In this document: piece after piece, positions 3,210 to 61,645 of the stretch
Position numbering within the stretch: position 1 is the first letter of the stretch
Layout: every line of letters begins with the position of its first letter
DNA from: Rickettsiales bacterium
GTDB lineage: Bacteria > Pseudomonadota > Alphaproteobacteria > Rickettsiales > UBA1997
Direction of reading: 5' to 3'
Assembly (NCBI GenBank): GCA_031289855.1
Contig: JAITOR010000075.1
Location: forward strand, 7,702 to 71,701
DNA length: 64,000 bases
Position numbers and translations under genes: made by a program
The notes under the pieces: generated by a model
Told to the model about the DNA's origin: nothing
What the model saw: the letters and a program-made list of their open reading frames with translations, nothing else
The model's database searches: none

Positions 3210-3252
3210 TCAATTAAAAACACAATTAAAATAAAATTTATTTTTTTTTATA

Positions 3253-3284
3253 TACTTCCATACTTTACAGTTATGATATATAAT
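3253..3284 (+). promoter_or_regulatory. cassette copy A: TACTTCCAT-N17-TATAAT
   Basis: The sequence is tacTTCCATactttacagttatgataTATAAT. It is followed 6 nt later by an ATG at 3291. Confidence 0.45.
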
Positions 3285-3290
3285 ATAAAC

Positions 3291-3332
3291 ATGATTATAA
3301 TGTATATGTTGGATATGTGTTGCATATATTAA
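3291..3332 (+). other. candidate leaderless mini-ORF MIIMYMLDMCCIY
   Basis: The ATG lies 6 nt after the -10 of cassette copy A. It shares TATAATATAAACATG and the ATGTGTTG (Met-Cys-Cys) string with the luxS leader. Confidence 0.25.
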
Positions 3333-3363: not shown

Positions 3364-3398
3364 AATAAACAAAACCCTGTATTACTATAATACAAGGC
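3364..3398 (-). terminator. intrinsic terminator after the 340-aa gene
   Basis: The hairpin ccttgtatta/taatacagg (3376..3397, one bulge) is followed on the minus strand by gttttgtttatt. Confidence 0.55.
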
Positions 3399-3421
3399 TT
3401 TGTCAAATCACAAACAACTTC

Positions 3422-4444
3422 TCATCTGGGGGTGATGGTGGTGGTGGACGAAGATGCTGTTATTCTTGCTGCTAATGTTGCTCTATGGTCGTTTCGTGGT
3501 AAAAGCTTATCGGGTTGAATACCATCGAAAGGTTTAATACTATCAATACCATCACCACCTAAACATAAAGCCTTGATACACACAGATACATCTCTTCCCC
3601 CCTCAATATTTGCAATTACCTGATGAATCCAATCCTTATCACCACTATAATCGTCATTTTTCGCAACTTTTTTTGCATAATTGATAATTTCTTTAACTCC
3701 AATAGCCCCCTTGTTAAATTGGATATACTTTAGACGGAATTCACTAACTATGTCTTTTTTGACACTCATCTCCCCGTCATCTTTGTCGTCATCGTCACCG
3801 TCTCCTTCATCTCTAGCGGTTGTTCCATCTGCGGTTTTAGTAAAATTTCTAAGTCGTTTTAAGGTTTCCAATCTTAATACTGGGTTTACATTTATTTCCT
3901 TTATAGCAGTCATTTCTTGCGCAACTTCTTTGCTAATCTCTTCAAGTTTTTCACTTTTTTCTAAAACATTAGAATCCAATCCATCCAATAATTTTATGAA
4001 AGTATAATCTACTATTTTGTCAAAAACCTCCAGCGCTCTTAAATCAAAAACAATTTTGCCTTCCAACACCTCATCTGCCGCAGGTTGTCCGTCTGATGGC
4101 TCGCCATATTTAGCGAATGCCACTACATTCCTAAAAACTGTTTTTGCTTTTGCTACAAATTCTTTATTAATAGCATCAATCCTACCTTTTTCCTCTATTA
4201 TTTCAGGAGCAGCACCTGCTATTGCACCATCAGATCCCACTTGAACAAAAAGATTAAATTGAAAAGAATCTCTGTATCTTCCACCTCGTAAACCATTGAG
4301 AACTCCAATTTCATTATCAGTTAGTTCTTCACCCTTGGCATTTTTTTCATTAAGAATTTCTAAAAATGCCCTAAAGGGTATAAGTTTAAGTTTTCCATCA
4401 CTTGATGTCAAGTCCCTTGTTGTTTCATCTGCAGGCTCTGTCAT
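3422..4444 (-). CDS. hypothetical acidic protein (340 aa), no recognisable family
   Basis: A long ORF with no signal peptide. It has an acidic block DEGDGDDDDKDDGE and an S/T-rich C-terminus ITASSSTTTITPR. A terminator hairpin follows it. Confidence 0.6.
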   Translation of the reverse strand: MTEPADETTRDLTSSDGKLKLIPFRAFLEILNEKNAKGEELTDNEIGVLNGLRGGRYRDSFQFNLFVQVGSDGAIAGAAPEIIEEKGRIDAINKEFVAKAKTVFRNVVAFAKYGEPSDGQPAADEVLEGKIVFDLRALEVFDKIVDYTFIKLLDGLDSNVLEKSEKLEEISKEVAQEMTAIKEINVNPVLRLETLKRLRNFTKTADGTTARDEGDGDDDDKDDGEMSVKKDIVSEFRLKYIQFNKGAIGVKEIINYAKKVAKNDDYSGDKDWIHQVIANIEGGRDVSVCIKALCLGGDGIDSIKPFDGIQPDKLLPRNDHRATLAARITASSSTTTITPR

Positions 4445-4687
4445 AATTATTTCCTATAATTTATTAAACATAATCAATATTATCACAAAAAAAAAGCAAG
4501 TTTATTTGATTAATTATTAATATTATTTTTATTTATTTAATAATAATAATATTAGTGAAAGATAAACTCGTCATCTATAATGGATATAATATTAGAAAGT
4601 GTGATAATGAAAGTGATAAGGATAGGAATAACCAAAGAAGAATAGGGATAGAAGTATGATTAAAGGAATATAAAAATATTAAAATGG

Positions 4688-5488
4688 CTATTTACTCAAA
4701 TATTCATAAACCTCTTTTTTATTGTTGGCAAATCCCATTTTAACTATAAAATCACTAATATCTTTTACCCTCATAATTCCTTTTAAATTATCGTTTACAA
4801 GATTTATTTTTTCTTTATCAAAACTAACCTCACTCTCATTGTTTTTTAACAAAATAACAAATTCACCCCTAACTTTATCTTTATTTTCATTGTAATATTT
4901 CAAAACTTCACTAACCTTTCCATTTTTTATCTCTTCATACATTTTTGTAATCTCGCGACATACACAAATTTCAATGTTCCCTAAATTTTCAAAAATATCA
5001 TGCAAAGTAAATAAAATTCTTGCGGGACTTTCATATAAAATTATAGTTTCAGTTTTATACCTTAATTTCTGTAAATCTTTTTTGTTTTCTAAAAATCCCC
5101 AAAATAAAAATTTATCTGTTGGCATTCCACTCATAACCAATGAAGTTAAAACCGCGCTTGCCCCACAAATAGCAACAACTTTAATATTGTTTTTATGACA
5201 TTCGGCCACCAATTTATAACCAGGATCGCTGATTAAAGGCGTTCCTGCATCACTGACAAGTCCTACGTTTTTGCCTTCTTTTAATAATTTTATAATTCCA
5301 TTTCGCTCATTTTCATTCGAAAAATCATTGTAAACATGCAAAGATTTTTTTATTTCAAAATGTTGCAATAATTTGTCAGTAACTCTTGTATCTTCACAAA
5401 AAAGATAATCTATACCTTTTAAAATCTCTAATGCCCTTAAAGTAATGTCATTATAATTGCCAATTGGAGTTGAAATAATATGCAACAT
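4688..5488 (-). CDS. rsmI: 16S rRNA (cytidine1402-2'-O)-methyltransferase
   Basis: ORF 4688..5578. Start moved to MLHIISTPIGN (ATG 5488..5486), which overlaps the upstream stop as TAATG. It has the tetrapyrrole-methylase-type motifs TPIGNxxDITLRALEIL and CEDTRVT. Confidence 0.85.
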   Translation of the reverse strand: MLHIISTPIGNYNDITLRALEILKGIDYLFCEDTRVTDKLLQHFEIKKSLHVYNDFSNENERNGIIKLLKEGKNVGLVSDAGTPLISDPGYKLVAECHKNNIKVVAICGASAVLTSLVMSGMPTDKFLFWGFLENKKDLQKLRYKTETIILYESPARILFTLHDIFENLGNIEICVCREITKMYEEIKNGKVSEVLKYYNENKDKVRGEFVILLKNNESEVSFDKEKINLVNDNLKGIMRVKDISDFIVKMGFANNKKEVYEYLSK

Positions 5489-7066: not shown

Positions 7067-7098
7067 ATTATTACACATTATCACAAATGAGGGAAGTA
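7067..7098 (-). promoter_or_regulatory. cassette copy B (divergent, 3 nt shorter), upstream of the capsid gene
   Basis: The minus strand reads atacTTCCCTcatttgtgataatgtgTAATAAT. It lies about 35-65 nt upstream of the capsid ATG at 7032. Confidence 0.35.
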
Positions 7099-7123: not shown

Positions 7124-7152
7124 TTGCAAAGTGACAAATTATTTTATATAAT
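7124..7152 (+). promoter_or_regulatory. sigma70-type promoter of ftsI (TTGCAA-N17-TATAAT)
   Basis: The spacer is exactly 17 nt. The ATG at 7159 lies only 6 nt after the -10, which is leaderless geometry. Confidence 0.55.
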
Positions 7153-7158
7153 ATAAAT

Positions 7159-8781
7159 ATGAAAAGATATTCAATTAACAAAACTGATTATACATATTCA
7201 AGAAATAGGTTATTTTTTCTTGTTTTATGCGTTATTTTTTTGCTCTTTGTGTATGTGGGGAGAATTTTTTATTTATCGTGTTTTTATAAAAAAAATAATA
7301 TGGAACAAGAATATATTTTTACAAATACAAATATTATATCAAGGGATGCAATTAGAGTTGATATAGTTGATAAAAATGATGTTATTTTGGCAACTAATAT
7401 TAAATTGTATGATTTTTATTTAAATAAAGATTTAATAACAAACAATGAATCTACAATTGATATTATAGTTAAAATTTTTCCATTTTTAAATAAAGAAACT
7501 TTGTTAAAAAAAATTACAAACCATAAATCAAAGTTAATTTTGATTAAAAATGGCATAACAGAAAGTCAAAAAAATGAAATCAAAAAAACTATTTTTGGCT
7601 TTGAATTTATGGAAAGTTTAGTAAGAATATACCCACATCAAGAATTGTTTTCCCATATAATAGGTTTTACAAATAGCGATAAACATGGAATTGAAGGCCT
7701 TGAATTACAATATAACGATTATCTTGACAATAAGGATAATCCACCATTAAAACTCACTTTTGATAGTAGGATACAAGCAATTTTAAGGAAGCAATTATTG
7801 AAAGGTATGGAAAAATATAAGGCAAAGTCAATAATTGGCATTGTGGCAGAAGTAAAAACTGGAAATGTTTTGGCATTAGTGAACTTGCCAGACTTTAATC
7901 CAAATCAATTAAATGATGTAAAAAGGGATGTTATGTATAATAAAGTGACCTTTGGAGCATTTGAAATGGGCTCTATATTTAAAATATTTACAATTGCTAT
8001 GGCACTTGATGGAAACATAATTACGGAAAATGAGCAATTTGATTCTTCAAGTAAAATTGATATTGGAAAATATATAATAAAACAGGATTATTATAGCAAA
8101 AAAATGATAAATGCAAAAGAAATTTTACAAAAATCTTCAAACATTGGTGCCGCTCTTATTGGTTTAAAAGGTGGTGCAGATAATATGAAGCAATTTTATA
8201 AAAAAATAGGATTTTTTGATAAATTGCCAGTAAAATATCCATCATTGGCAATGCCACTTTATCCAAGGACTTGGCGGAAATCAAACACTATTACAACATC
8301 ATATGGATATGGAATGGCAGTTAGTCCGTTGCATATAATTATGGGTGTAAGTGGAATTGTGAATGAAGGAATTATGAATATTCCAAAGTTTGTGACGAGT
8401 GAAAAATATGAAAAAGTTGAAATCATTAGTCAAAAAACTTCAAAAATAATGCAAAACTATTTAAGAGATGTAGTGCAAAATGGAACTGGATTTAGAGCAA
8501 ATACACTCGGTTATTCTGTTGGTGGAAAAACTGGTTCTGCAAGGCTGTTAGGTAGAGGTGGGGAATATTTGGAAGGACAAATTATGGCAAATTTTGTGGG
8601 AATTTTTCCCATGAATAATCCGCATTATGTGGTGTATGTGATGGTTGAAAATCCGCAAGATAATAATTACAAAAAAAACATTGATATTGCAGCAAGTAAT
8701 GTAACTGCTCCCATTGTGTCGAAAATTATTGAAAACATAGCACCAATCCTGAATGTTGTCCCATATATTGAGGGATTGTAA
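7159..8781 (+). CDS. ftsI: peptidoglycan D,D-transpeptidase (class B PBP, FtsI/PBP2-like)
   Basis: It has an N-terminal TM anchor and the transpeptidase motifs SIFK (SxxK), SSN (SxN) and KTGS (KTG). Confidence 0.85.
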   Translation: MKRYSINKTDYTYSRNRLFFLVLCVIFLLFVYVGRIFYLSCFYKKNNMEQEYIFTNTNIISRDAIRVDIVDKNDVILATNIKLYDFYLNKDLITNNESTIDIIVKIFPFLNKETLLKKITNHKSKLILIKNGITESQKNEIKKTIFGFEFMESLVRIYPHQELFSHIIGFTNSDKHGIEGLELQYNDYLDNKDNPPLKLTFDSRIQAILRKQLLKGMEKYKAKSIIGIVAEVKTGNVLALVNLPDFNPNQLNDVKRDVMYNKVTFGAFEMGSIFKIFTIAMALDGNIITENEQFDSSSKIDIGKYIIKQDYYSKKMINAKEILQKSSNIGAALIGLKGGADNMKQFYKKIGFFDKLPVKYPSLAMPLYPRTWRKSNTITTSYGYGMAVSPLHIIMGVSGIVNEGIMNIPKFVTSEKYEKVEIISQKTSKIMQNYLRDVVQNGTGFRANTLGYSVGGKTGSARLLGRGGEYLEGQIMANFVGIFPMNNPHYVVYVMVENPQDNNYKKNIDIAASNVTAPIVSKIIENIAPILNVVPYIEGL

Positions 8782-9769: not shown

Positions 9770-10030
9770 AAATAGAGTGATTCTTTAAAATGGTTCACTC
9801 AAGACCATTCTTGCAATAACAAAATCTCTATTGAGATTAACCCGAAGGTTATGCAGCTAAAGCAAGGTCTGAATTATCTTCAGCATTTATGTTTTGAACT
9901 ATTACGGTTGTATCTTGCCGGACAAAATCATATTTTTCGATGTATGTCTAAGCTAATCATCCCCTTAAAAATGGTGGAGATGCCGAGTTCCGCCCTCGGG
10001 TCCATATCATTTATTATATATAACGTTTAT
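9770..10030 (-). ncRNA. ssrA: two-piece (circularly permuted) tmRNA; outer boundaries approximate
   Basis: On the minus strand the acceptor piece ends ...GGACCCGAGGGCGGAACTCGGCATCTCCACCA, with its 3' end at 9972. Seven nt later the coding piece starts GGGGATGATTAGCTTAGAC at 9964. GGGGATG pairs with CATCTCC and includes the G3:U70 alanine identity pair. The tag frame ends GCT GAA GAT AAT TCA GAC CTT GCT TTA GCT GCA TAA (9884..9849), giving ...AEDNSDLALAA. Confidence 0.8.
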
Positions 10031-10288
10031 CATCATAGTCATAAAGACGTACTTATTATAATATATATTACACAATAAGTCAAATTAATTCACCATAATT
10101 AAAAATAATTTTTTGATTTATTAAAATATAATAATATAAAATATTAATATTATTAATAATATGGTTATTTTGTAATTATGTTTTACCAGAAAAAAGGTTT
10201 TAGGATGAGATATGTTTTTATTGTAGTTATTGGCCTGTTACTGCTCTTTTATGTGATTGACAAAATATATTCAAATATAGGAGATTAT

Positions 10289-19599: not shown

Positions 19600-22500
19600 A
19601 TGTTTTTTAAAAAGTTTTTTTGTTCGTTATTATTGATTACCTTACTTGTCAGTTGCGAAGGTGCTAATTGCATTGATGCAAATGATTTTGGGGAGTTTGA
19701 CGTACATACAATGGCAATAGAATCACAAAAAACTTTATGTAAATGGGAAGAAACTGATACATCCGATGGAAACGGGGATTATGAAATTGAAAGATGTTTA
19801 AGAGATGCGAGTGGCGCAAGGAGTATTAGAAATCCAGATATAGATTGTACTATAACATTTAACGAGGGAACTTCTGGTTATGCAAAAGTAAAAGAAGCCT
19901 TAAAATCACAAAATATCACAAAAGGTTTTATGGAAAAATATTTTACTTTGAATAATGAAAGTCAGTGTGGAACGGATTATAAAAAATTATTGACCGCCTT
20001 TTATGCGGAAGGACTTGAGGACTGCATATCCACATGTGAAACAAAACATAAAGCATCAAATCCAGTGTCGGAAGATGTTTATGAACCTGAATGGAAGCCG
20101 GCAGATTTAATTTTAGAAGTTGGTAGAGAATTTTATATTAAAGCAACGGGTGAAATAGATTTGTTGGGAGAAAAGGAGCGAAGCGTTCAGTATCTTGCTG
20201 GTTCCATAAATATGAATAAAAAAACTACTATAAATACTATTTTTGCCATAAAAACTAATACTGATATGACGTTTTCTGGTAATTGGATTACAACAAAAAA
20301 CGGAGTTGTTGACAAAAATTATGGTGAGATTGATGGTAATCAACCAAATTTACAAAAAAGAATTGAATTTTTGAGAAGAGGTGTTATGTATTTACAACCA
20401 CTTCCCAGCGTTAAAATACAAGGTATGACCATAATTGGCGAAGTAAATGAGATAGGTTCTTATACCGGGCCAGATGTGGAATTAGATAAAACAAAAATTT
20501 CTTGTTTAGTGAATGAAAACTTACCTTATGATGGGTATCCTACCACTTGTAAAGTTGATTATGGAGTTGAAGAGTTACCTGATGATTTTTCTATAGCAGC
20601 ACTTACGGAATCTCAAAGAATAGCATTGGCAAATAATGAATTGTATAAGTTGGATCCTTTTATGTCAAAATCAAAGGCTGGATATGTATTGACGCCTGAC
20701 ATTATAGATTATATGACTAAAATGCCACTAAAAGGTTATAGTTGCGCAACAACATTTAATGCAAATTACGGAATTTATCGTAGAAATTGTGATGATGGAA
20801 AAATAGATAGAAGTATTGGATTTAATAATGGTTATTTAGTACCAAAAGCCTTTGTTTTTACAAATGAAACTCAGGGTGGAAATGATGATTATCAAATGGA
20901 TATAAATGGGTTGGTTTTTCCTGTAAAAATCATGGTAAGAGTTTATGGCGGAATAAGGGGAGAATGTAAAGTTGGTATAAAAATGCCAGCAGCATTAGGG
21001 GTAAACGATCTTGATCCTTCCAACGAAGTTGATGGATTTTACAAAGTTACTATTCCCGCTAATGATAAATGGCACTATATAAATGATATAAAAAACAAAC
21101 CAATAATATTTGGAAAAAATACATTTTTTACCATAAAAGAAACAACTGAAGGTAGAGTAAATGTAAGAAATGAAAATCAATATAATTTAGCTTTAAAAGT
21201 TGTGTCTCCAAGTTTTGATGAAGGTAATAGACCTCAGTGGACGGCTGCTCCTGGTGCTTCATTATATCCAAATACTTTTGTTGTGCCACCTATACCTTCA
21301 AAAGGCACGCCAAATGAAATTATTGACACAGAAAATCATCCAGCTCCTTGTGGCGAGGGTATGGTTGTTATGTTGATGCCACAAAATGAAATAGTGATAA
21401 AAGAAAGTGGATTTGTTTCAATCAAATCGTTTCTAAAAGACAAAATATATACTTGTAATGCCGCTGATGATGGAAGTGAAGTATTTTGTCAGGATGGTGC
21501 CAATGGTGGAGGTAATCCACCAATAAATAGAACATTTAATTTGAAATATACTATATTAAATCCAAATGTAAATGCATCCGCAACAACTTTTGCTGTTAAA
21601 TCTGAAAATTTTTATGAAAAATCAACCTCAGAAATTGTCGGCAGTTCAAATAAATATTATCCAAAGTTTAATGATTTAATGATACCAGTTTCAGCAATAG
21701 GTTCCGTGAGCACTACCACATGGAGTAGCAAATTTTTTGTTAGAAAAGGACAGGTCATTAGATTTGATGAAACCAGTTGGTTTGGCATTGAAGGATCCAA
21801 TGGAGATGGTTTTGAAGTAAAAGAAAAATTTTTAAAGTATGATAATTTTAATATCAAAAAAAACATAGGAGAAGGTTTAATAATGCATATTGAGAAAAGA
21901 CCATCTTTTTTATGCACAGGCGAAGCCGAAGAATCAATATTCAATTCATCTTGCCAAAAGATTAAAAAAGATGATGGAACTGTTGATTGCAGGGTTCCTT
22001 ATTCTCAATATTGTTCCACAATGAATTCACAGGCAGAAGTAGATAGATATTGTCCGCTCGGTTGTTATAAAGTGGAGGTTGGTGGCGGTGGAGAAGCAGA
22101 GCATAAAGTGGAAATAAATGAAGGATGGGGAATTGCTTTATTGAAAGGCGATAGTACAATCAAAAATCAATCATTTTATGTGGATAATAATGAGAAGGAA
22201 TCTAACAATTGCTCTTATCCTCCTGAGTCATTACCTGAAAGTTTTGAAGATCCAATGAGTGTACAAAAATGTATAGAATGTAGAAATTATATAGAAAGTA
22301 ATCCGGACGCTTCAATTGAATTGGTGAATAAGGTATCTTTAACTCAATGTTATGATTTAGAAAATTATACAGGAAGCATCAAGGTTTTAGAAAATAAAAA
22401 TCCCTTTATAAATAGTGAAACAGGAGAGGGTGATTATAATAAAAAGACATTTGATTTATTGGGTGTAAAAAAATTAAATAGTATATTTTCGCAAGATGCA

Positions 22501-25500
22501 AAATATGGAAACCTTGAAGGCTCATCCGTTGACTCTCAATATCAACAAAGCGATGGAACTTATACAAAGTTTATTTATAATTCACCAACTGAATTAAAAA
22601 CAGAAGAACCAAAAATAATTAAATTTTTAACTCTAAACATTGATGATAATTTGGATTTTTCTCCTTCATTTGCAGAGGATATTGGAAGATACAAAATTAC
22701 ACTTATGGAAGGTGATAAATTTATGAATGGAAAACAACTTTCTGTACTTATAGCTCACAAAGGTTGGGATAAAAAAAATTTTAGTCAACAATGTGAAACT
22801 GGTTTTTGTGTTAAACAATATGTTGTAAAATATGACACAAGTAAAGAAAGTGAAGGAGGTTTGGAACCTAATACAAATTATGGTAAAGAATTAAGCGATG
22901 TAAATGATTATGAATTTGATTCATTTGGAGATCTTGTAAGTAAAGCCAAAATAAGTGAAAAAAAACTCATTTTAACATCTATAAAAAATGGACTAACATC
23001 TTTTGATTTAGTTGAACCAAAAGAATATGAAGATTTAAGAATATATTTTAAAGTTATTGATAGATTGCAATACGCTCCAAAGGAAACATTTAATGATGAT
23101 TGTCCTTTAAATACCATAGCAGAATATGAAACACGTTATAGTTGTACAGGCGCAACATATGATGAATTAAAAACCATTACATGTGTTTCGACAATTAATA
23201 ATGTAAGTGAAACAATCAGTGCTTGCCCCATTAGTGCCACCGATACAGCCTGTTCAAAGACGAGTGCGGGTTCATATATTACACCACCATATAGCATTAA
23301 AGTAAAAGTTGGTTGTAATCATGGCTTATATTATAATAATAATGGTGGTTATTCAGTGAAAATACAATCTCCAAAAGTTTTCACAAGTTTAAATTCCGTA
23401 ACCGATATGGATAGCGCTATAAAAACCAATGTTTTGTCATGGGGGGTTACAAAAATTCAAGGTTTCACAATTAGAAGATTGCTAAATCCTTTTATGGAAG
23501 TTATGGAAGGAATAAATATGGGATTACTGAATTTTAGGGGAGGATTTGAACCTTGTGTGAAAGAAATTGGAGAAACTGTGTCTTCAAAATGCACCTATTA
23601 CAATCCAAAAACAGATATTTTCGATCCACAATTTGGTGCAGGTTGCACATACGATCAACCAAATTGCTTTATAACATGCAACCTAATAAATGAAAGCGAT
23701 CCAGGATATGCTGGTAAATGTAAAATTGTGAATGATAATGGTGGTTATATTAAAAACTTTTATTCAAGAGTTATATTGGATTCGCAATTTCATGCAGTAG
23801 TAAGAATTTTATTAACTTTAATGATGACATTTTTGGGTTTATATCATTTGATAGGTATGTCAGAAATAACAAGTAAAGAGATGCTTACAAGAATTACAAA
23901 GATTGGAATAATTTATTTATTTATAGGGGAAACTGGATGGTTTTATTACAATAGATTTATCGTTCAATTTTTTGTAAGAGGTGCCGATTATTTGTCTTAT
24001 GCAGTGGCAGGTGCATTTGAGGAGACTCCAGGACTTACAAGAGAATTCACAAAGGGAATCTTTCTTGATAAAACGGTATTATTTGGTGCCACCGATAGAA
24101 ATTTAGCATTAATATTTTCAGCTGAAGTAAATTACAAAATATTAGGTCTATTGTTTACAAGTTATCTCGGCTGGTTATATGTAATATTATTATATTCGGC
24201 TCTCATAAACTATGTTTTTGCCTCACTTAATGCTTTGGTTTTGTTTATGATGTCAAAATTTTTGCTGATGGTAATGTTGACATTTGGTCCAATATTCTTT
24301 GTGCTATTGATTTTTGAAAAAACAAAGACTGCATTTGACAAATGGGTAATGGCACTTGTGGGACATGTGGTGGAGCAAGTATCTTTAATGGTTGGATTAT
24401 CATTATTTAATATGTTGGTTTATAATTTTATAAAATTTGTATTGAATTTTAGAGTATGTTGGACCCAAGTGTGGATTGTTGAACTTCCATTATTAGGTAG
24501 TATAAAACTATTTAATTTTTGGAGAGCAACCACTGGTACCACAACCGTTACAACGGCAATGAATGCAATGCCAGGATTATTTAGAGTATTGATTATATAT
24601 ATCATTGCAGATTTAATGAAAGGATTTATAGAATTGGTGAGAAATTTTTCCAACGATATTGCAAAATCTGGTTTAAAATTAGGAGATAGGGTTGGTGGAA
24701 TTTTAGAAGAAGTTAACAGATATAAAGAGGGGGATGATGGTATAAAAGATTCTTTCACAAAAGGATTAAATGCCAAAAGAGATTCATTCTTTAAGAAGAT
24801 GGGATACCAGACAGAAGAAGAGGAAATGAAAGAACAAAGTGATGAAAAGAAAAATAATATAAAAATAAGACAGGGTGAAAATGCTGGAAAAGAGGCAAGA
24901 AATGATCTTGCCGCAAAGGCACATATAGAATCAACAAAAAAGGCAAAAGAATCTGCTGAAAAATTTGTAAATAATAAAGGAGATGCTGCTAAAAATAAAC
25001 ATCTTGAAGAAAAAGGTCAAGAGGCAAGAGAAGTGGCTGAAAATGCATTTAAATCTAAAAAAAATAACAAAAAATTGTCTCCAGAGGAACTTGAAAAAGG
25101 AGCAAGAGAAGAGGGAGATAAGGCCGAAAAAGAAGCAAAAGAAAATGCAGACAATATTAAGGAAGCAGAAAGTAAGGCAACAGAAGCAAAAGAGAAAGCA
25201 CAAAAAGATGTGACAGGTATAAAAGCAGCCGAAAAAGAAGCATATAAATCTTCATATAACGAAATGGCGAGCACAGAAAAACTTGATGAAGCTTACAAAA
25301 ATGCATTTACAGCAAAAGCCGGGGCGGATAATTGGGGCAAAGAGGCAAGCACAAAAGCTGATAGTGTATTTGGTTTCATTGCATCAAAGGCATGGCATGC
25401 CGCAAGAGATGGCAAAGCAAGCACAAAAGCTGATAGTAGCACAATAGATAAACAAAATGAGATGACAAAAGTTGTTAAAAAAGCAAAGGATAAGGACGAT

Positions 25501-26343
25501 AAAAAGGAATTTGATAAAAAACATGATGAAAAATTAAAAGAGGAAGGTCATGGATTTTTAGCAAGAAGATGGGCCATGAGAAAAAATGCTCTTACGGGTG
25601 GTAGAAAACATAGTGGAGTTGGTATAACGCCATTAGGAAAAACCACAAGTAATTATAGAGATGCAGCGCTTAAGGAACAAAATGAAAAGAAAAATAAAGA
25701 TAAAGAAATGCTTGAATACAGAAATGAAATAGCACAAGAATCAAGACAAAAGAAAATTGAATCTGACAGAGAACTTGAGAACCACAAAAAAACAGGGGAA
25801 TATAAAGAAGATTTAAGGGATGAAACAAATAAATTACAAAAAGAATGGATGAAGGAAAATAGTTTTACTTCGTATGATAAATTTATAAAAAATGGAACTG
25901 TTGAACAGAAAAAAGCATATGGAAAACTTGGAGAAAAGGCAAAAAAGAATGTTGAAAGTAAATATCTAAAAAAGAGAGCAGAGGCGAAAGCTGCTGAAGA
26001 AAAAGATGCATCTGCAACAGCATCAGAAGAGGCAACACCAAAAAAAACGGAAACAGAAGAGGCAACACTAAAATCAGAGGAGGAGGCAACATCAAAAAAA
26101 ACGGAAACAGAAGAGGCAACACCACCTGAAGCAGAAACAGGTGCTGAAGCCAATGATGCAACACAACCAGAGATACCGGAAGTTCCATCGGAAGTACTTC
26201 CTCAGCCTTTAGAGGGGGAGGCTATACCACCACCTAAAACGGAAATATCAGCAAAAAGAAGAAAAAAGGCATCACATCGCGGAAGAGCAACAATTCCGGA
26301 TGGTTCACCTGAACCAATGGATGAACCGGAGGAAACTGAATGA
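19600..26343 (+). CDS. giant (2,247 aa) lipoprotein with a VirB6/TrbL-like polytopic membrane core
   Basis: The lipobox is LLVSC, with Cys at aa 19. A Cys-rich soluble region of about 1,375 aa follows. A cluster of hydrophobic helices spans about aa 1396-1672 and contains TFGPIFFVLLIFEKTKTAFDKWVMALVGHVV. That segment parallels the VirB6 segment AIGPLILVGYIFDRTRDIAAKWIGQLITYGL of A. tumefaciens as I recall it. A K/E/A-rich low-complexity tail of about 575 aa carries short tandem repeats. Confidence 0.6.
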   Translation: MFFKKFFCSLLLITLLVSCEGANCIDANDFGEFDVHTMAIESQKTLCKWEETDTSDGNGDYEIERCLRDASGARSIRNPDIDCTITFNEGTSGYAKVKEALKSQNITKGFMEKYFTLNNESQCGTDYKKLLTAFYAEGLEDCISTCETKHKASNPVSEDVYEPEWKPADLILEVGREFYIKATGEIDLLGEKERSVQYLAGSINMNKKTTINTIFAIKTNTDMTFSGNWITTKNGVVDKNYGEIDGNQPNLQKRIEFLRRGVMYLQPLPSVKIQGMTIIGEVNEIGSYTGPDVELDKTKISCLVNENLPYDGYPTTCKVDYGVEELPDDFSIAALTESQRIALANNELYKLDPFMSKSKAGYVLTPDIIDYMTKMPLKGYSCATTFNANYGIYRRNCDDGKIDRSIGFNNGYLVPKAFVFTNETQGGNDDYQMDINGLVFPVKIMVRVYGGIRGECKVGIKMPAALGVNDLDPSNEVDGFYKVTIPANDKWHYINDIKNKPIIFGKNTFFTIKETTEGRVNVRNENQYNLALKVVSPSFDEGNRPQWTAAPGASLYPNTFVVPPIPSKGTPNEIIDTENHPAPCGEGMVVMLMPQNEIVIKESGFVSIKSFLKDKIYTCNAADDGSEVFCQDGANGGGNPPINRTFNLKYTILNPNVNASATTFAVKSENFYEKSTSEIVGSSNKYYPKFNDLMIPVSAIGSVSTTTWSSKFFVRKGQVIRFDETSWFGIEGSNGDGFEVKEKFLKYDNFNIKKNIGEGLIMHIEKRPSFLCTGEAEESIFNSSCQKIKKDDGTVDCRVPYSQYCSTMNSQAEVDRYCPLGCYKVEVGGGGEAEHKVEINEGWGIALLKGDSTIKNQSFYVDNNEKESNNCSYPPESLPESFEDPMSVQKCIECRNYIESNPDASIELVNKVSLTQCYDLENYTGSIKVLENKNPFINSETGEGDYNKKTFDLLGVKKLNSIFSQDAKYGNLEGSSVDSQYQQSDGTYTKFIYNSPTELKTEEPKIIKFLTLNIDDNLDFSPSFAEDIGRYKITLMEGDKFMNGKQLSVLIAHKGWDKKNFSQQCETGFCVKQYVVKYDTSKESEGGLEPNTNYGKELSDVNDYEFDSFGDLVSKAKISEKKLILTSIKNGLTSFDLVEPKEYEDLRIYFKVIDRLQYAPKETFNDDCPLNTIAEYETRYSCTGATYDELKTITCVSTINNVSETISACPISATDTACSKTSAGSYITPPYSIKVKVGCNHGLYYNNNGGYSVKIQSPKVFTSLNSVTDMDSAIKTNVLSWGVTKIQGFTIRRLLNPFMEVMEGINMGLLNFRGGFEPCVKEIGETVSSKCTYYNPKTDIFDPQFGAGCTYDQPNCFITCNLINESDPGYAGKCKIVNDNGGYIKNFYSRVILDSQFHAVVRILLTLMMTFLGLYHLIGMSEITSKEMLTRITKIGIIYLFIGETGWFYYNRFIVQFFVRGADYLSYAVAGAFEETPGLTREFTKGIFLDKTVLFGATDRNLALIFSAEVNYKILGLLFTSYLGWLYVILLYSALINYVFASLNALVLFMMSKFLLMVMLTFGPIFFVLLIFEKTKTAFDKWVMALVGHVVEQVSLMVGLSLFNMLVYNFIKFVLNFRVCWTQVWIVELPLLGSIKLFNFWRATTGTTTVTTAMNAMPGLFRVLIIYIIADLMKGFIELVRNFSNDIAKSGLKLGDRVGGILEEVNRYKEGDDGIKDSFTKGLNAKRDSFFKKMGYQTEEEEMKEQSDEKKNNIKIRQGENAGKEARNDLAAKAHIESTKKAKESAEKFVNNKGDAAKNKHLEEKGQEAREVAENAFKSKKNNKKLSPEELEKGAREEGDKAEKEAKENADNIKEAESKATEAKEKAQKDVTGIKAAEKEAYKSSYNEMASTEKLDEAYKNAFTAKAGADNWGKEASTKADSVFGFIASKAWHAARDGKASTKADSSTIDKQNEMTKVVKKAKDKDDKKEFDKKHDEKLKEEGHGFLARRWAMRKNALTGGRKHSGVGITPLGKTTSNYRDAALKEQNEKKNKDKEMLEYRNEIAQESRQKKIESDRELENHKKTGEYKEDLRDETNKLQKEWMKENSFTSYDKFIKNGTVEQKKAYGKLGEKAKKNVESKYLKKRAEAKAAEEKDASATASEEATPKKTETEEATLKSEEEATSKKTETEEATPPEAETGAEANDATQPEIPEVPSEVLPQPLEGEAIPPPKTEISAKRRKKASHRGRATIPDGSPEPMDEPEETE
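26026..26121 (+). repeat. intragenic imperfect tandem repeats (EEAT modules) in the tail of the giant gene
   Basis: GAAGAGGCAACA or GAGGAGGCAACA occurs at 26026, 26056, 26080 and 26110. AAAAAAAACGGAAACAGAAGAGGCAACA occurs twice. Confidence 0.8.
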
Positions 26344-37944: not shown

Positions 37945-38919
37945 TTACAATATTAATAGTTTTCTTGATATACTTTTTATTCTTTTATCTTCACTTTTTC
38001 TTAATAAAAAATATCCCGTCAATCTTTCGGCAATCATACCAATATCTCTAAATTTTCTACTATCTTTTGGTAATTTTTCCTCTAATTTAAATAATATAGG
38101 AAATATCCAATTGGAATATTCAAAAAATAATTCTCTCTTCATTATAAATATATTATTAAAATAAATTTTGTCACCCTCAAAAAATTTTTTCACATCTTGA
38201 TATTGTGATGGGTATTTATCTTTAATAAAAGTCATGGTTTCATTAAAAATATCTATACTAACCGCTTTGTTATATGGCATCATGTATTGAAAGTAAACGC
38301 TTAAAACGTTTCTTAACTGTGTTGTTACTAAATCCATACCCTCCATAACATCTTCTATTGCTCTGTATTCCAGCAGTTTTCCATAATGATAAACTCCAAT
38401 ATATTCCGGATTTCCAATTTTATCATAGTTTTTCCATGCCCAATAAATACCAGTCATCTCATTCCAATATCTATTGTAGCGAGAAACATTGTCACCAGTA
38501 TCATCACCTATCATGTTATCATTCAACCATTTATGGGGGTGGAGCAGAGTTTTTTTATAGTGCTCTTTGAAATCAGTTGCTATTTCTTCACCTACCTTGG
38601 CAATACTTCTACCACAATGTATTGGAAGTATTACTTTGTTTTGCCAAAGTGTATAAGGTTTGTGATAACAGGCAATAATTTTGATGTTATATCTTGTTTT
38701 ATCATCTGGATTATCATATCTGTATTTTTTTATTTCAATTGGTTTTTTTAAATTAATTTGCTCCTCAAGTTGAGCCAATATTGTTCTATCAAATGTACAA
38801 TGTGAATAAAATTTTTTTAAATTAACTGCCAATTGTTCTATCAAATATACATATGAATGAAATGAAATTAAAATAAATGATATGACGATAATATTTGAAT
38901 AATATTTATTTTTTAACAT
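37945..38919 (-). CDS. DUF4422-domain putative glycosyltransferase, paralog 1
   Basis: An N-terminal TM anchor is followed by IKIIACYHKP...LPIHCGR...GDDTGDNVS...YWAWKNY...IGVYHYGK and FIMKRELFFEYSNWIFPILF. This is the DUF4422 pattern (DNTGDNIS...YWxWKN...HYRR). It is clearly homologous to 50606..51604. Confidence 0.65.
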   Translation of the reverse strand: MLKNKYYSNIIVISFILISFHSYVYLIEQLAVNLKKFYSHCTFDRTILAQLEEQINLKKPIEIKKYRYDNPDDKTRYNIKIIACYHKPYTLWQNKVILPIHCGRSIAKVGEEIATDFKEHYKKTLLHPHKWLNDNMIGDDTGDNVSRYNRYWNEMTGIYWAWKNYDKIGNPEYIGVYHYGKLLEYRAIEDVMEGMDLVTTQLRNVLSVYFQYMMPYNKAVSIDIFNETMTFIKDKYPSQYQDVKKFFEGDKIYFNNIFIMKRELFFEYSNWIFPILFKLEEKLPKDSRKFRDIGMIAERLTGYFLLRKSEDKRIKSISRKLLIL

Positions 38920-38972: not shown

Positions 38973-38987
38973 TCATGTCTTTTTCAT
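38973..38987 (-). other. mini-uORF ATG AAA AAG ACA TGA (MKKT) in the leader of DUF4422 paralog 1
   Basis: AGGAA precedes it. A homologous mini-ORF is present in the copy E leader. Confidence 0.3.
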
Positions 38988-39021
38988 AATTATATTCCTA
39001 TATTTTGTTAATATTATTTAT

Positions 39022-39053
39022 ATTATACATCATAAGTGTAAAGTGCGGAAGTA
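39022..39053 (-). promoter_or_regulatory. cassette copy C, upstream of DUF4422 paralog 1
   Basis: The minus strand reads tacTTCCGCactttacacttatgatgTATAAT. The predicted leader to ATG 38919 is about 96 nt. Confidence 0.5.
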
Positions 39054-39090
39054 TATAAATAAAAAATATTATAAAATTATTTTTCAAAAG

Positions 39091-39122
39091 TACTTCCATA
39101 CTTAAAATAAATAAGTTATACT
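39091..39122 (+). promoter_or_regulatory. cassette copy C-prime, divergent partner facing kpsF
   Basis: The sequence is tacTTCCATacttaaaataaataagtTATACT. It is in inverted orientation to copy C, 37 nt away, and lies about 90 nt upstream of kpsF. Confidence 0.4.
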
Positions 39123-41496: not shown

Positions 41497-41499
41497 TTA

Positions 41500-41871
41500 T
41501 TTACTTCAACATTTCTATGTACTTCGCCAATCCTTTTTTCACCTATATCTCCATTCTTTCTCTTTTTCGTTTACTTCATCCTGATTATTTCCATTTTTGC
41601 ATAATCTATCTACGTTGGATATAACTATTTTATCTTCTTTTTTTGTTGTTCGTTCTATTAATTCTGAAAAAACCACTTTTTGATAAAATAAAGTATTGAC
41701 AATTTCTCATAAGTTCCAATTCGAAATATAGTTCACTATCATTATTCATATCAAAATAATTAAATGAATATTTATATTTGATATATCTTTTACAAGATTT
41801 TGTAATATATTATTATTCAATCTTGCCTTCACTAAATTCATAGAACTTGAAAAGATAAATGTAATATTCAT
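41500..41871 (-). pseudogene. degraded ORF downstream of cassette copy D
   Basis: On the minus strand, an ATG at 41871 opens a 41-codon ORF (MNITFIFSSSMNLVKARLNNNILQNLVKDISNINIHLIILI). The reading then continues in two other frames (MNNDSELYFELELMRNCQYFILSKSGFFRINRTNNKKRR, then KKEDKIVISNVDRLCKNGNNQDEVNEKEKEWRYR). One frame break lies at a poly-A run. Ancestral identity unknown. Confidence 0.3.
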
Positions 41872-41875
41872 TTAT

Positions 41876-41907
41876 ATTATACATCATAAGTGTAAAGTAC
41901 GGAAGTA
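41876..41907 (-). promoter_or_regulatory. cassette copy D, upstream of the degraded ORF
   Basis: The minus strand reads tacTTCCGTactttacacttatgatgTATAAT. It is nearly identical to copy C over more than 44 nt. Confidence 0.45.
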
Positions 41908-41985
41908 CATAAAGAAAATAAATATTAATTATTATAATTGTTTTTTGTTTTTATTTCAAATTTACACGTTATATATTAATTATAT

Positions 41986-50507: not shown

Positions 50508-50533
50508 AGAGAGAGAGAGAGAGAGAGAGAGAG
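50508..50533. repeat. (AG)13 dinucleotide microsatellite
   Basis: There are 26 nt of perfect AG alternation. A C6 run precedes it and a polypyrimidine tract (50544..50579) follows. Confidence 0.95.
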
Positions 50534-50605
50534 TAAATACACACTTTTTCCCCATCCTTTTTCTCTTCTTCCTCCTCCCATGTTTTTTAGAATAGTGGGG
50601 TATAT

Positions 50606-51604
50606 ATGAATAAAATATTGCTCAATTTATGTTCCATTTTTATAATAAAAAAGAAAAAAAGAGAGTATTTTAAAATAAGATACAAAAATAAAACTTTATT
50701 AAGTTGTTTTTGTCCAAAAAAAATTTCGAACATGATTGATAAAATAAATAGAATAGACAATATTGACACAAATAATAGATATAATCGTATAAACATACAA
50801 ACCAATAGGGATTATTCCATAGAAGGTTGGAAATATGATAATCCATTGGATAAAACGAAATATGATATAAAAATTATCATTACTTATCACAGACCAGCAT
50901 TTTTGTTTCAACATAAAGTTTTGCTTCCTATACATGGTGGTAGGGATATAAAAGACAATAATATTATAAAAAGTGGTGCTGGAGAATTTATAAAAAGCGA
51001 ACAATCGATAAAATGGCTGCAAGATAATATGATTGGTGATAACACGGGAGACAATATTTCTTATATGAATAAAAATATAAGCATTGAGTCATCCTTGTAT
51101 TGGGTTTGGAAACATTATGATGAGATTGGAAATCCAGCCTATATTGGTAATTTTCATTTTAGGAAATTATTTCCATTTAGTGCCTTACATGATTATGCAA
51201 TTTATGATTTAATCTTGCCTATTAAAAGACAAACTGGAAAAGGATGTGATCTTTTAAATGAAATAAATGAAATCACAATGAATATTATAAAAAAACACTC
51301 ACCAGAATTAGTTGAAGAGATAAGAAAATGGTATTTAAAAGAAGCGAAAGACATTTATTATGATGAGATGTATATAATGACAAAAAAATTGTTTTTTGAA
51401 TATTGTGAATGGATTTTTCCAATTATATTTGATTTATACGAAGTTACAACAAAACAAAAAATACAAATTTGCTCTTGGGATATCAAAGGAGATGTGAGGC
51501 AAGTCGCTTGGGTTGTTGAAAGATTGACGGGCTGGTGGTTGTGGAAAAAAACACAAGATAAAAATATCAAATACAAAGAAATGCCCATAGTTATTATTGA
51601 ATAG
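50606..51604 (+). CDS. DUF4422-domain putative glycosyltransferase, paralog 2
   Basis: IKIIITYHRP...LPIHGGR...GDNTGDNIS...YWVWKHY...IGNFHFRK and YIMTKKLFFEYCEWIFPIIF show homology to 37945..38919. Confidence 0.65.
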   Translation: MNKILLNLCSIFIIKKKKREYFKIRYKNKTLLSCFCPKKISNMIDKINRIDNIDTNNRYNRINIQTNRDYSIEGWKYDNPLDKTKYDIKIIITYHRPAFLFQHKVLLPIHGGRDIKDNNIIKSGAGEFIKSEQSIKWLQDNMIGDNTGDNISYMNKNISIESSLYWVWKHYDEIGNPAYIGNFHFRKLFPFSALHDYAIYDLILPIKRQTGKGCDLLNEINEITMNIIKKHSPELVEEIRKWYLKEAKDIYYDEMYIMTKKLFFEYCEWIFPIIFDLYEVTTKQKIQICSWDIKGDVRQVAWVVERLTGWWLWKKTQDKNIKYKEMPIVIIE

Positions 51605-59351: not shown

Positions 59352-60527
59352 TTATTTTTTAAAATATTTCTTTATTGTTTCAGCCAATGCTTCCACTATC
59401 TTATCTCTGTAACTTGCACTCCTTATCATCCTTTCTTCATTATTATTTGAAATAAATCCAATTTCCAACAAAATTGATGCCGTATTCGCCCCAGTTAAAA
59501 CAGCAAAATTTGCAAATTTTCTCATATTGCTACTTAAACTTCTTACATTTCGTTTTTTAAGTTCCTGTTCCAAATATCCAGCAAATTTTTTTGAATCATT
59601 CATTGCCTTTACTCTTGATAAATCAACAAGTGTATTTATTGTGTCCTGATATTCACCATATAAATCTGCACCACTTATAATATCAGATTTATTTTCTTTT
59701 TGGGCTAATTGTGCCGTTCTTGTGTCACTTGCTGTTTGTGATAAAGTATAAATCGAAAGCCCTTTTGCATTCCTGTTTGTCGTAGCATCGGCATGTATAG
59801 AAATGAACAAATCTCCTTTTCTTTTTCTTGCAAATGCAATTCTATCCATCAATTCGATGTAAGTATCGTTATTTCTTGTTAAATACACGCTATAAAGTCC
59901 AGTTTTATCCAAAATTTCCTTCAAGGATTTTGCATAGATTAGGGTAAGAATTTTTTCTTTTGTCCCCCTTTGGCCTTGAGCCCCTGGGTCTTTCCCACCA
60001 TGTCCCGCATCTATTATGATTACGGGTTTTGTTTTGGGAATTGAGGTAAGTTTGCTTTCCTTTTTCGTTTTTGTTTTTTTTGGCTCTTCTATCCTTTTTG
60101 TATTCAAATCGTCTATTAAGGTTTCTATTTTATCTTTTTTTTCCTCCTTTTCAAATTCTAAATCTATAACTATCCTATGATATTTATTATTTTTATCTGG
60201 TTTTAAATAAAAATCTTTAATACTTTTCGGTTTTATGTTTAGGTCAAACACAATCCTTGAATCCGTATTTGAAAATTTTCCAATCCTCAAAGAATCAACG
60301 ACTTCATTTGATGCAAATGATGGAGCTTTGACATTATAGTTTTCTGTACTTTGCAAATCAATTACCAATCTATCAGGATTTTTCAATAAAAATGGATTGT
60401 AATTTATTTTCGTGCTATTGTCTATCACAATCCTTTCGGTGTATTTTCCTGTATTTAATCTAATATTTGATACAATATTTGCATACAATGTATTTACACA
60501 CAATAAAAGTAAAATTATTTTTCGCAT
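59352..60527 (-). CDS. amiC: N-acetylmuramoyl-L-alanine amidase (AMIN + Amidase_3, AmiC-like)
   Basis: A signal peptide and an AMIN-like N-domain precede the catalytic motifs IIIDAGHGGKDPGA and ISIHADA. The ATG overlaps the upstream stop as TAATG. Confidence 0.85.
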   Translation of the reverse strand: MRKIILLLLCVNTLYANIVSNIRLNTGKYTERIVIDNSTKINYNPFLLKNPDRLVIDLQSTENYNVKAPSFASNEVVDSLRIGKFSNTDSRIVFDLNIKPKSIKDFYLKPDKNNKYHRIVIDLEFEKEEKKDKIETLIDDLNTKRIEEPKKTKTKKESKLTSIPKTKPVIIIDAGHGGKDPGAQGQRGTKEKILTLIYAKSLKEILDKTGLYSVYLTRNNDTYIELMDRIAFARKRKGDLFISIHADATTNRNAKGLSIYTLSQTASDTRTAQLAQKENKSDIISGADLYGEYQDTINTLVDLSRVKAMNDSKKFAGYLEQELKKRNVRSLSSNMRKFANFAVLTGANTASILLEIGFISNNNEERMIRSASYRDKIVEALAETIKKYFKK

Positions 60528-61381
60528 TATTTTTTTGCTGATTTAAATTTATTGACAGCGGCCTTTCCCAACTGATCACTCTCTGCTTTTTGTTTTTCTT
60601 CTTTTTCCGCTATTTGTTCTCTTTCCAAGGATTGTAGTTTTACAAAAATATAGGCCAAATAAATATACATTATATCCCAAATACATAGTTTGATGAAAAA
60701 AGTAGCCTGTATTCCAAATTTAAAGTTAAATTTTATAATCGCAAGCCCCACCAATTCTTCCACACCAAAAACGACTAATGTTGTTATAATTAATGAAAAC
60801 ATAAGTTTTAACAAATTTCCCTTTGTAAGATTTCTGCTTCTATCGAGTGCTTTAATGCCCACTGGAATATATATATCGCCAGTTTTACTTGTGGCAATTT
60901 TATTATTCAAGTCTCCCACAGCACTCAAAAATATACCAAAAATATACCAAAAGGCGAACAAAATTCCGGGTATTATCCCCAACACAAATAATAATAAAAT
61001 TAATATATAATAGGTAATTAAGGTTCCAAAAACACTAAAAAATCTAGTGCAACTTAATGTTAAAAGTTCCATAATGTCATTTTTGGTCCCTTTTCTCATA
61101 ATCGTAATTGTATTGCCATATAAAATGACTTTAAAAGTTGTCAAAATCGTCAATAGTAACCCGTAATATGAGATGTAAAATAAAATACTAAAGCCAAAAT
61201 AATTATACAAAAATGTTCTATATTTAATTTGTAAAAATGGCCTATAGTAAAAAAACATTGCCACACCATTCGCAAAAAGAATATAAAAAATATGCTTTAA
61301 ATAATATCTTAACGACTTAACAACATTACTTAAATATAATGATTTCATTTTAAGTTCGTAAGATGGAGATCCCTTTGCCAT
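60527..61381 (-). CDS. hypothetical polytopic membrane protein (284 aa) with a K/E-rich C-terminal tail
   Basis: There are five or six hydrophobic segments. Cassette copy E and its leader precede the gene. Confidence 0.55.
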   Translation of the reverse strand: MAKGSPSYELKMKSLYLSNVVKSLRYYLKHIFYILFANGVAMFFYYRPFLQIKYRTFLYNYFGFSILFYISYYGLLLTILTTFKVILYGNTITIMRKGTKNDIMELLTLSCTRFFSVFGTLITYYILILLLFVLGIIPGILFAFWYIFGIFLSAVGDLNNKIATSKTGDIYIPVGIKALDRSRNLTKGNLLKLMFSLIITTLVVFGVEELVGLAIIKFNFKFGIQATFFIKLCIWDIMYIYLAYIFVKLQSLEREQIAEKEEKQKAESDQLGKAAVNKFKSAKK

Positions 61382-61443
61382 AATATTATTATAAACATTG
61401 TTTAATTAATATAATAATAGATAAAATATTAAAATCAATATTT

Positions 61444-61458
61444 TTATGTTTTTTTCAA
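61444..61458 (-). other. mini-uORF TTG AAA AAA ACA TAA (MKKT) in the leader of the 284-aa membrane protein gene
   Basis: AGGAGG lies 5 nt upstream of the TTG. Confidence 0.3.
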
Positions 61459-61490
61459 ATCGTCCTCCTAATTTTATTAATGTTATTTGT

Positions 61491-61522
61491 ATTATATATC
61501 ATAAAAGCAAATCATGGAAGTA
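61491..61522 (-). promoter_or_regulatory. cassette copy E, upstream of the 284-aa membrane protein
   Basis: The minus strand reads tacTTCCATgatttgcttttatgataTATAAT. The leader to ATG 61381 is about 105 nt and is homologous to the copy C leader. Confidence 0.5.
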
Positions 61523-61645
61523 TTTTTTGAAAATAAATTTTTAATTGTTTTAAAATTACGAAATGGTCAAATCGTGAAGCGTTTATTAATGAGTTAAGGT
61601 ATCAATATTGTTGTGGGAAAACTCTCTATTTCTTTCATCGTTATT

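Follow-up and report, generated by a model that had tools for sequence, protein, structure and literature searches.

In the genome of an uncultured member of the Rickettsiales, two genes that encode unrelated envelope proteins are preceded by similar leaders, each of which contains a ribosome-binding site (RBS) and an open reading frame (ORF) of only four codons. A preliminary description of this DNA took the likeness for a shared cis-regulatory leader, in which, for example, translation of the upstream ORF (uORF) would control translation or transcription termination of the gene that follows. The locus raises the question of whether the mini-ORF is a control device of this kind, or whether its presence in front of both genes has a simpler origin. 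Analysis of the window, meaning here the whole 64-kb stretch of DNA under study, shows that the two leaders belong to a unit of ~105 nt that is duplicated, lineage-specific and built, in sequence, like a promoter with a translation-initiation region behind it. This is most likely a common duplication of a promoter and not a novel regulatory switch, and the mini-ORF reads best as a passenger or vestige of the duplicated promoter unit, a reading to which we assign a probability of roughly 55%.

The shared leader and its mini-ORFs

Both leader strings quoted in the preliminary description are found on the minus strand of the window, downstream of two copies (C and E) of a short repeat. The shared leader of copy C (38973-39021) contains the sequence AGGA (38999-38996) 8 nt before the mini-ORF ATG AAA AAG ACA TGA (38987-38973), and that of copy E (61444-61490) contains an AGGAGG Shine-Dalgarno sequence (61469-61464) 5 nt before the mini-ORF TTG AAA AAA ACA TAA (61458-61444); the limits of both leaders were set by alignment and profile. 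An RBS and a four-codon ORF encoding M-K-K-T are present in each leader as had been claimed, in the arrangements AGGA-N8-ATG (C) and AGGAGG-N5-TTG (E). They are preceded by ~25 nt of A-rich 5' untranslated region (UTR) between the -10 region and the Shine-Dalgarno sequence, without predicted shared structure. TGA is a real stop codon and the standard genetic code applies, because 11 of the 53 ORFs in the window end in TGA and the tRNA-Trp has the anticodon CCA; a reading of TGA as Trp, through which mini-ORF C would become 24 codons long, is ruled out on the same grounds.

The likeness of the two leaders far exceeds chance, over a shorter span than the ~100 nt first described. Local alignment of the 110 nt following the -10 sequences of C and E gave a score of 61 (2000 shuffles, 27.5 +/- 4.7, maximum 51), with all other pairs of repeat copies scoring 16-24, at background level. 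From the end of the -10 sequence to the mini-ORF stop codon, 38 of 49 positions are identical (score 39 against 11.9 +/- 4.1; none of 5000 shuffles scored as high), whereas the score from the mini-ORF stop to the main ATG is 22 against 20.5 +/- 5.5 for shuffles and is not significant. Because similarity past the stop codon is not significant, the homologous leader comprises the 5' ~48 nt and not ~105-110 nt, and its homology ends at, or a few bases after, the stop codon of the mini-ORF. The remaining 62 nt (E) and 53 nt (C) up to the main start codon are non-homologous. In nhmmer searches, a profile of the leader scored 32-33 bits for C and E and at most 6 bits elsewhere in ~140 kb, with no further copy found in the window and ~75 kb of retrieved loci.

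Genes downstream of the leaders

Behind copy E lies a gene for a 284-aa polytopic membrane protein (60527-61381, minus strand) that has at least four hydrophobic segments and no Pfam or NCBIfam match; next after it comes an AMIN/Amidase_3 (AmiC-like) gene (59352-60527), in the same order as in the relatives L002, L003 and L004. Copy C is located in a divergent intergenic region between a KpsF-like gene and a gene for a DUF4422 glycosyltransferase-like protein (37945-38919, minus strand; PF14393, E = 7e-38), which has one N-terminal hydrophobic segment. BLASTP comparison of the two downstream proteins gave a best E of 1.7, showing that they are unrelated and not paralogous, as the preliminary description had stated. 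Its view that the same leader has been placed before two non-homologous envelope genes is upheld, and this leader includes a site at which translation could plausibly start. The window contains a second DUF4422 paralogue (50606-51604), whose upstream region is unrelated to the leader. Just upstream of this gene are a (GA)13 dinucleotide repeat (50508-50535) and a C/T-rich tract (50545-50580), which are unusual at 29% G+C and recall, by analogy, phase-variable surface-glycan genes.

A dispersed promoter-like repeat

The repeat that precedes both leaders consists of an A/T-rich block or T-tract, the sequence TACTTCC, a 19-nt spacer ending in TTATGATR, TATAAT and AYAAAT. Four clear copies (A, C, D and E) occur in the 64 kb, all with a perfect TATAAT and all pointing toward downstream ORFs or ORF remnants, a layout and orientation such as would be expected of a promoter. 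In copy C (39022-39053, minus strand; 31-nt core 39052-39022), TACTTCC (39053-39047) is followed by the 19-nt spacer and TATAAT (39027-39022) and is preceded by an A/T-rich block (39054-39077). Copy E (61491-61522, minus strand; 31-nt core 61521-61491; nhmmer E = 5.9e-13) likewise contains TACTTCC (61522-61516), a 19-nt spacer ending in TTATGATA and TATAAT (61496-61491). Its A/T-rich block AATTAAAAATTTATTTTCAAAAAA (61523-61546) occupies the position of an UP element just upstream of TACTTCC, and the ATTTATTTT motif of this block is found also in copies A and D. Read as a promoter, the copy E core would place the start site at about 61484.

Copies A and D lack a leader of the C/E type, leaving C and E as the only two of the four clear copies that share sequence past AYAAAT. 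In copy A (core 3254-3284, plus strand, with TACTTCC from 3253; whole repeat 3229-3296), a 13-codon ORF begins 6 nt past TATAAT and is followed by a terminator-like hairpin (3369-3403). Bounded by T-runs on the minus strand, this hairpin (ACAAAACCCTGTATTA/TAATACAAGGCTTTGT) probably serves as the terminator of a convergent 340-aa gene and would also end a short copy A transcript. Downstream of copy D (core 41906-41876, minus strand, with TACTTCC from 41907; whole repeat 41863-41931) there is a fragment with a weak likeness to the C-terminal part of a family 11 glycosyltransferase. The sequence concerned (41497-41875, minus strand) is interrupted by stop codons, with one frame weakly matching that family (E = 0.035), and probably represents the decayed remains of a gene cut short at the repeat.

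Assignment of the repeat to promoters is based on its sequence features, namely the perfect TATAAT, the A/T-rich upstream block and the orientation toward ORFs. Since other genes of the window (for example those of SecY, a 428-aa ORF, MBOAT and a 238-aa ORF) have canonical TTGACA/TTGACT-N17-TAnnnT sequences upstream, the repeat, whose -35 position is taken by TACTTCC, 18-19 nt ahead of TATAAT, constitutes a distinct promoter-like class, which may be read by a sigma factor variant or an activator. Looser copies are also present: one is divergent from copy C (TACTTCC-N19-TATACT; 39091-39122, plus strand) and faces the SIS/CBS (KpsF-like) gene at 39214, another lies at 7098 (minus strand) before a phage-capsid-family gene, and a third is found in the relative L002 (4135, plus strand) as TACTTCC-N18-TATAAT-N6-ATG. 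An ATG exactly 6 nt after TATAAT occurs at a PBP/transpeptidase gene (7147-7161, plus strand), the 13-codon ORF of copy A (3279-3293, plus strand) and the DUF5675 gene of L002 (4160-4174), a spacing that suggests leaderless mRNAs.

Duplication of a promoter-like unit

The cores of copies C and D are nearly identical (30/31; the two copies have 88% identity over 59 nt), while those of A and C share 27/31 positions and those of C and E 23/31. Over the whole unit, C and E are 72.5% identical in 109 alignment columns; the figure rises to 81.7% in their best 60-nt stretch and to 80% over 50 nt. When this comparison is divided by part, identity is 60% in the UP region, 74% in the core (23/31) and 78% in the leader (38/49). 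Divergence that is approximately uniform across core and leader fits the duplication of a single unit of ~105 nt, and identity at similar levels in all three parts means that flanking non-leader DNA was duplicated as well, which speaks against the leader as a device for uORF-dependent control. That the C and D cores are almost the same points to a later event of partial copying or gene conversion.

We propose that leaders C and E are paralogous and go back to a single ~105-nt promoter module, which was duplicated inside this Rickettsiales genome. Read from its 5' end, the module would comprise the A/T-rich block, TACTTCC, the 19-nt spacer, TATAAT, AYAAAT, the ~25-nt A-rich 5' UTR, the Shine-Dalgarno sequence and the four-codon ORF. 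Each copy would serve as an extra upstream promoter, from which transcripts would read into the DUF4422 gene or into the operon of the 284-aa protein and the amidase. The RBS and mini-ORF would have been carried along in the unit and may be a vestige of the translation-initiation region of the gene that the module originally served; the mini-ORF is probably translated on module transcripts, and nothing indicates that it senses a signal.

Reuse of promoters upstream of unrelated genes is a documented and common phenomenon, described for putative mobile promoters (Matus-Garcia, Nijveen and van Passel 2012; PMC3575422), and the present case would be an instance of it. As in that work, highly similar non-coding sequences of at least 50 nt stand before non-paralogous genes of one genome with no associated transposase, and both C-D (88% over 59 nt) and C-E (81.7% over 60 nt) reach the similarity used there as the operational definition. 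Unlike those promoters, the repeated unit described here extends past the -10 sequence and the 5' UTR into an RBS and a four-codon ORF, and it has TACTTCC at the -35 position where other genes of the same genome have TTGACA-like hexamers. Correia elements, ERIC, REPIN and Rickettsia palindromic elements are similar in being short dispersed intergenic repeats of compact genomes that can supply promoters; they differ from the repeat in that the latter has a directional promoter-like layout instead of a hairpin, with no terminal inverted repeats, palindrome or target-site duplication. Only imperfect A/T-rich inverted repeats were found in copies C and E, in non-equivalent positions, and inspection of the copies revealed no matching flanking direct repeats. 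A MITE-like or Correia-type element was rejected for lack of consistent terminal inverted repeats and target-site duplications.

Searches for more copies in other data yielded little. An exact-pattern scan of genome and metagenome contigs for the repeat core returned one unrelated Lachnospiraceae promoter and none of the window's own copies, so that the source genome appears to be absent from both collections. Protein-based retrieval found just short contigs identical to the window or contigs of relatives, and a search with the VirB6-like protein for paralogue-bearing contigs of the same genome found relatives only. Two short-read contigs of the same organism (the end of L009 and the start of L006) overlap by 30 nt (k-1) inside copy E, at 61507-61536. 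This resembles an assembly-graph branch and weakly suggests that the same 30-mer occurs elsewhere in the sample.

If the promoter duplication reading is true, a small endosymbiont genome rewires envelope genes, here a glycosyltransferase gene and a membrane protein gene with an amidase gene, by copying a promoter unit of ~100 nt. It also provides a warning that a uORF can be conserved between paralogous leaders because duplication has carried it along.

Comparison with relatives

Among 5.8 billion clusters, only four homologues of the 284-aa protein were found (L002, L003, L004 and L011), with 41-56% identity. The repeat, the leader and the Shine-Dalgarno sequence with its mini-ORF are absent upstream of all four, and repeat, leader and mini-ORF are also absent upstream of DUF4422 homologues in L007 and L008 (44-47% identity). 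Conservation of the mini-ORF in orthologous leaders is contradicted by its absence at all six loci tested, with the qualification that the relatives compared are distant (41-56% protein identity).

A different element is conserved at the 284-aa locus. The block ATTGATTTT (61431-61439, minus strand), in which TTGATT is -35-like, is invariant in the window, L002 (~5047-5055), L003 (~9944-9952) and L004 (~9947-9955), and lies ~55 nt upstream of the start codon of the 284-aa gene. Its invariance, though the 284-aa proteins are only 53-56% identical, is unusually strong for intergenic DNA. The block likely marks the ancestral promoter of the 284-aa gene, and it starts only 4 nt 3' of the stop codon of mini-ORF E, so that the module appears to have been added in front of a promoter that was already there. 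In the proposed scheme, copy E would have come to lie immediately before the region that formed the original promoter of the 284-aa/amidase operon. The 284-aa gene thus still has a conserved -35-like block of its own, placed between mini-ORF and start codon, and this argues against the leader as its control device.

A descent of mini-ORF E from a 69-aa lipoprotein (spanin-like) ORF that precedes the L002 orthologue was also considered and rejected: tblastn found no trace of this ORF in the intergenic region, L003 and L004 do not have it in a syntenic position, and the same four-codon ORF is present in copy C. In L002, a DUF5675 gene, a small hydrophobic ORF and two overlapping small ORFs, one of them lipoprotein-like, stand directly upstream of the 284-aa/amidase pair (4172-5052), an arrangement that resembles a phage lysis cassette (holin plus spanins).

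Selection on the mini-ORF and its possible function

Three differences separate the mini-ORFs of C and E, and all preserve the reading frame: ATG/TTG at the start, AAG/AAA as synonymous Lys codons and TGA/TAA at the stop. When neutral change was simulated to 20% divergence, 12% of trials kept the start, the stop, the open frame and the Shine-Dalgarno sequence together, and 3% kept an identical peptide along with the Shine-Dalgarno sequence. As a neutral outcome of this kind arises in 3-12% of trials, selection on the mini-ORF is not demonstrated, and the substitutions that preserve it are a weak hint of constraint from a single comparison. With 12/15 identical positions, against 38/49 for its surroundings, the mini-ORF does not stand out in conservation. 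Homology stops where the mini-ORF stops, which would be expected of an ORF that is a functional part of the unit. No long ORF in the window is preceded by a Shine-Dalgarno sequence as strong as the AGGAGG of copy E. The initiation region of copy C (ATATAGGAATATAATTATGA) is almost identical to the start of a real gene at 4444 (ATTATAGGAAATAATTATGA) and so represents ordinary gene-start sequence for this genome. Shine-Dalgarno sequences are present at 10 of the 53 ORFs of the window (~19%, against a background of 5.9%) and are hence uncommon, making their absence before the two main ORFs unremarkable; the idea that the main ORFs need the Shine-Dalgarno sequence of the mini-ORF for want of their own is weakened by the ~80% of ORFs in the window that lack one.

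Among the alternatives to a passenger mini-ORF, the one that survives best, although it is rather unlikely, is that the Shine-Dalgarno sequence and mini-ORF form a functional, constitutive part of the module, in which a ribosome sitting close to the 5' terminus of the long, A/U-rich and unstructured leader would keep RNase E, scanning from that end, away from downstream sites, or would raise expression of the downstream gene in another way. Precedents have been published for such effects. In E. coli, uORF-bound ribosomes impede scanning by RNase E in a manner graded by Shine-Dalgarno strength and nearly independent of uORF length (Richards and Belasco; PMC9943677), and the two-codon mini-ORF (minigene) of axe-txe raises txe expression in cis (PMC8708949). 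According to citations in PMC3997798, a type III secretion mRNA is protected by the RBS of a mini-ORF (Lodato et al. 2012, reference 98 therein), and the STAB-SD of Agaisse and Lereclus (1996) belongs in the same context. The leaders of C and E resemble RNase E-protective mini-ORFs and STAB-SD in having a Shine-Dalgarno sequence and a very short ORF far ahead of the main start codon, within a 5' UTR that lacks structure. Both copies have this layout, with the mini-ORF stop 62 (E) and 53 nt (C) before the main ATG, a canonical RBS-to-start spacing, no predicted consensus structure in the shared leader, substitutions that keep the mini-ORF and homology that stops at its stop codon. In the published stabilisers the effect depends on Shine-Dalgarno strength and not on the peptide, whereas the leaders considered here are known from sequence as two copies that are absent in relatives. 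With two copies only, preservation is compatible with neutrality (3-12%), and the Shine-Dalgarno sequence of copy C is merely AGGA. The mini-ORF is missing from every relative examined, and a likely native promoter lies downstream of mini-ORF E, so that many transcripts would lack the mini-ORF altogether.

Still less probable, though worth stating, is a broader version in which the ~105-nt unit is a self-contained 'expression booster' that a reduced endosymbiont genome has re-used, with the mini-ORF portable and maintained by selection. Equally doubtful is the mechanism that goes with it, in which a non-canonical TACTTCC promoter would be combined with a ribosome-occupied mini-ORF, so that envelope genes without their own Shine-Dalgarno sequence would have their long A/U-rich leaders protected or activated. 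Should the mini-ORF be under selection and TACTTCC mark a separate promoter class, an organism that has very few regulators would possess a portable element serving both transcription and translation.

Regulation by the uORF, in which its translation status would control the downstream gene by stalling or attenuation, or by termination and antitermination upon a signal, is improbable. An RBS and a short ORF are indeed present in both leaders, as in the leader peptides of attenuators (erm, cat and the leaders of amino-acid operons), and in the minimum-free-energy fold of copy E the AGGAGG region pairs with codons 5-7 of the main ORF (z = -2.2). This pairing has no counterpart in copy C, the full leader of which folds no better than shuffles (z = -1.2), and the two structures are non-equivalent. 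No consensus base pairs were predicted for the shared leader of C and E, and neither leader contains a terminator-like site. Matches to Rfam at gathering thresholds were not obtained, with chance-level matches appearing only at E up to 10, and a riboswitch or other known RNA family was discarded for this reason. Unlike the erm, cat and amino-acid operon attenuators, the leaders show no alternative hairpins, terminator, conserved sequestered RBS of the main ORF or regulatory codons (in our own assessment, M-K-K-T holds no evident sensing or stalling codons), and the 53 and 62 nt between mini-ORF and main ATG are neither homologous nor conserved. Together with the lack of conservation in relatives, these findings leave uORF-dependent translational or termination control, as the preliminary description had suggested it, unsupported by structure or by comparison.

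Slightly less probable again is that the module forms an independent tiny transcription unit, for a small RNA or a four-residue peptide, that merely neighbours both genes. Copy A likewise drives no long ORF, just the 13-codon ORF and then the hairpin, and copy E lies upstream of a separate promoter-like block; these points are countered by the absence of a terminator behind the mini-ORF and of RNA structure, with ~48 transcribed homologous nt giving no signal of a structured small RNA. A likeness that arose by chance between A/T-rich intergenic sequences, or by convergence of translation-initiation regions with no common origin, can be dismissed: the genome has 29% G+C, ATGAAAAAA-type gene starts are common in it and a real gene start weakly matches the leader profile (E = 3.8), but no shuffle attained the score of the C-E alignment, the profile scores of C and E (32-33 bits) stand far from the at most 6 bits found elsewhere and other pairs of repeat copies remain at background.

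Genome context of the repeat

The promoter duplication proposed for copies C and E is set in DNA with a G+C content of 27-33% (29% given for the genome). The window encodes SecY, RpoA, ribosomal proteins, a VirB6-like protein of 2247 aa and many cell-envelope functions, as well as four tRNAs and a tmRNA whose gene is permuted (two-piece; 9771-10087, minus strand), as expected for an alphaproteobacterium. The VirB6/TrbL-like protein (19600-26343, plus strand), for which a protein database search gave only two homologues, is encoded directly after rplK-rplA, and its gene contains 24-30-nt tandem repeats near the part encoding the C-terminus (25996-26140).
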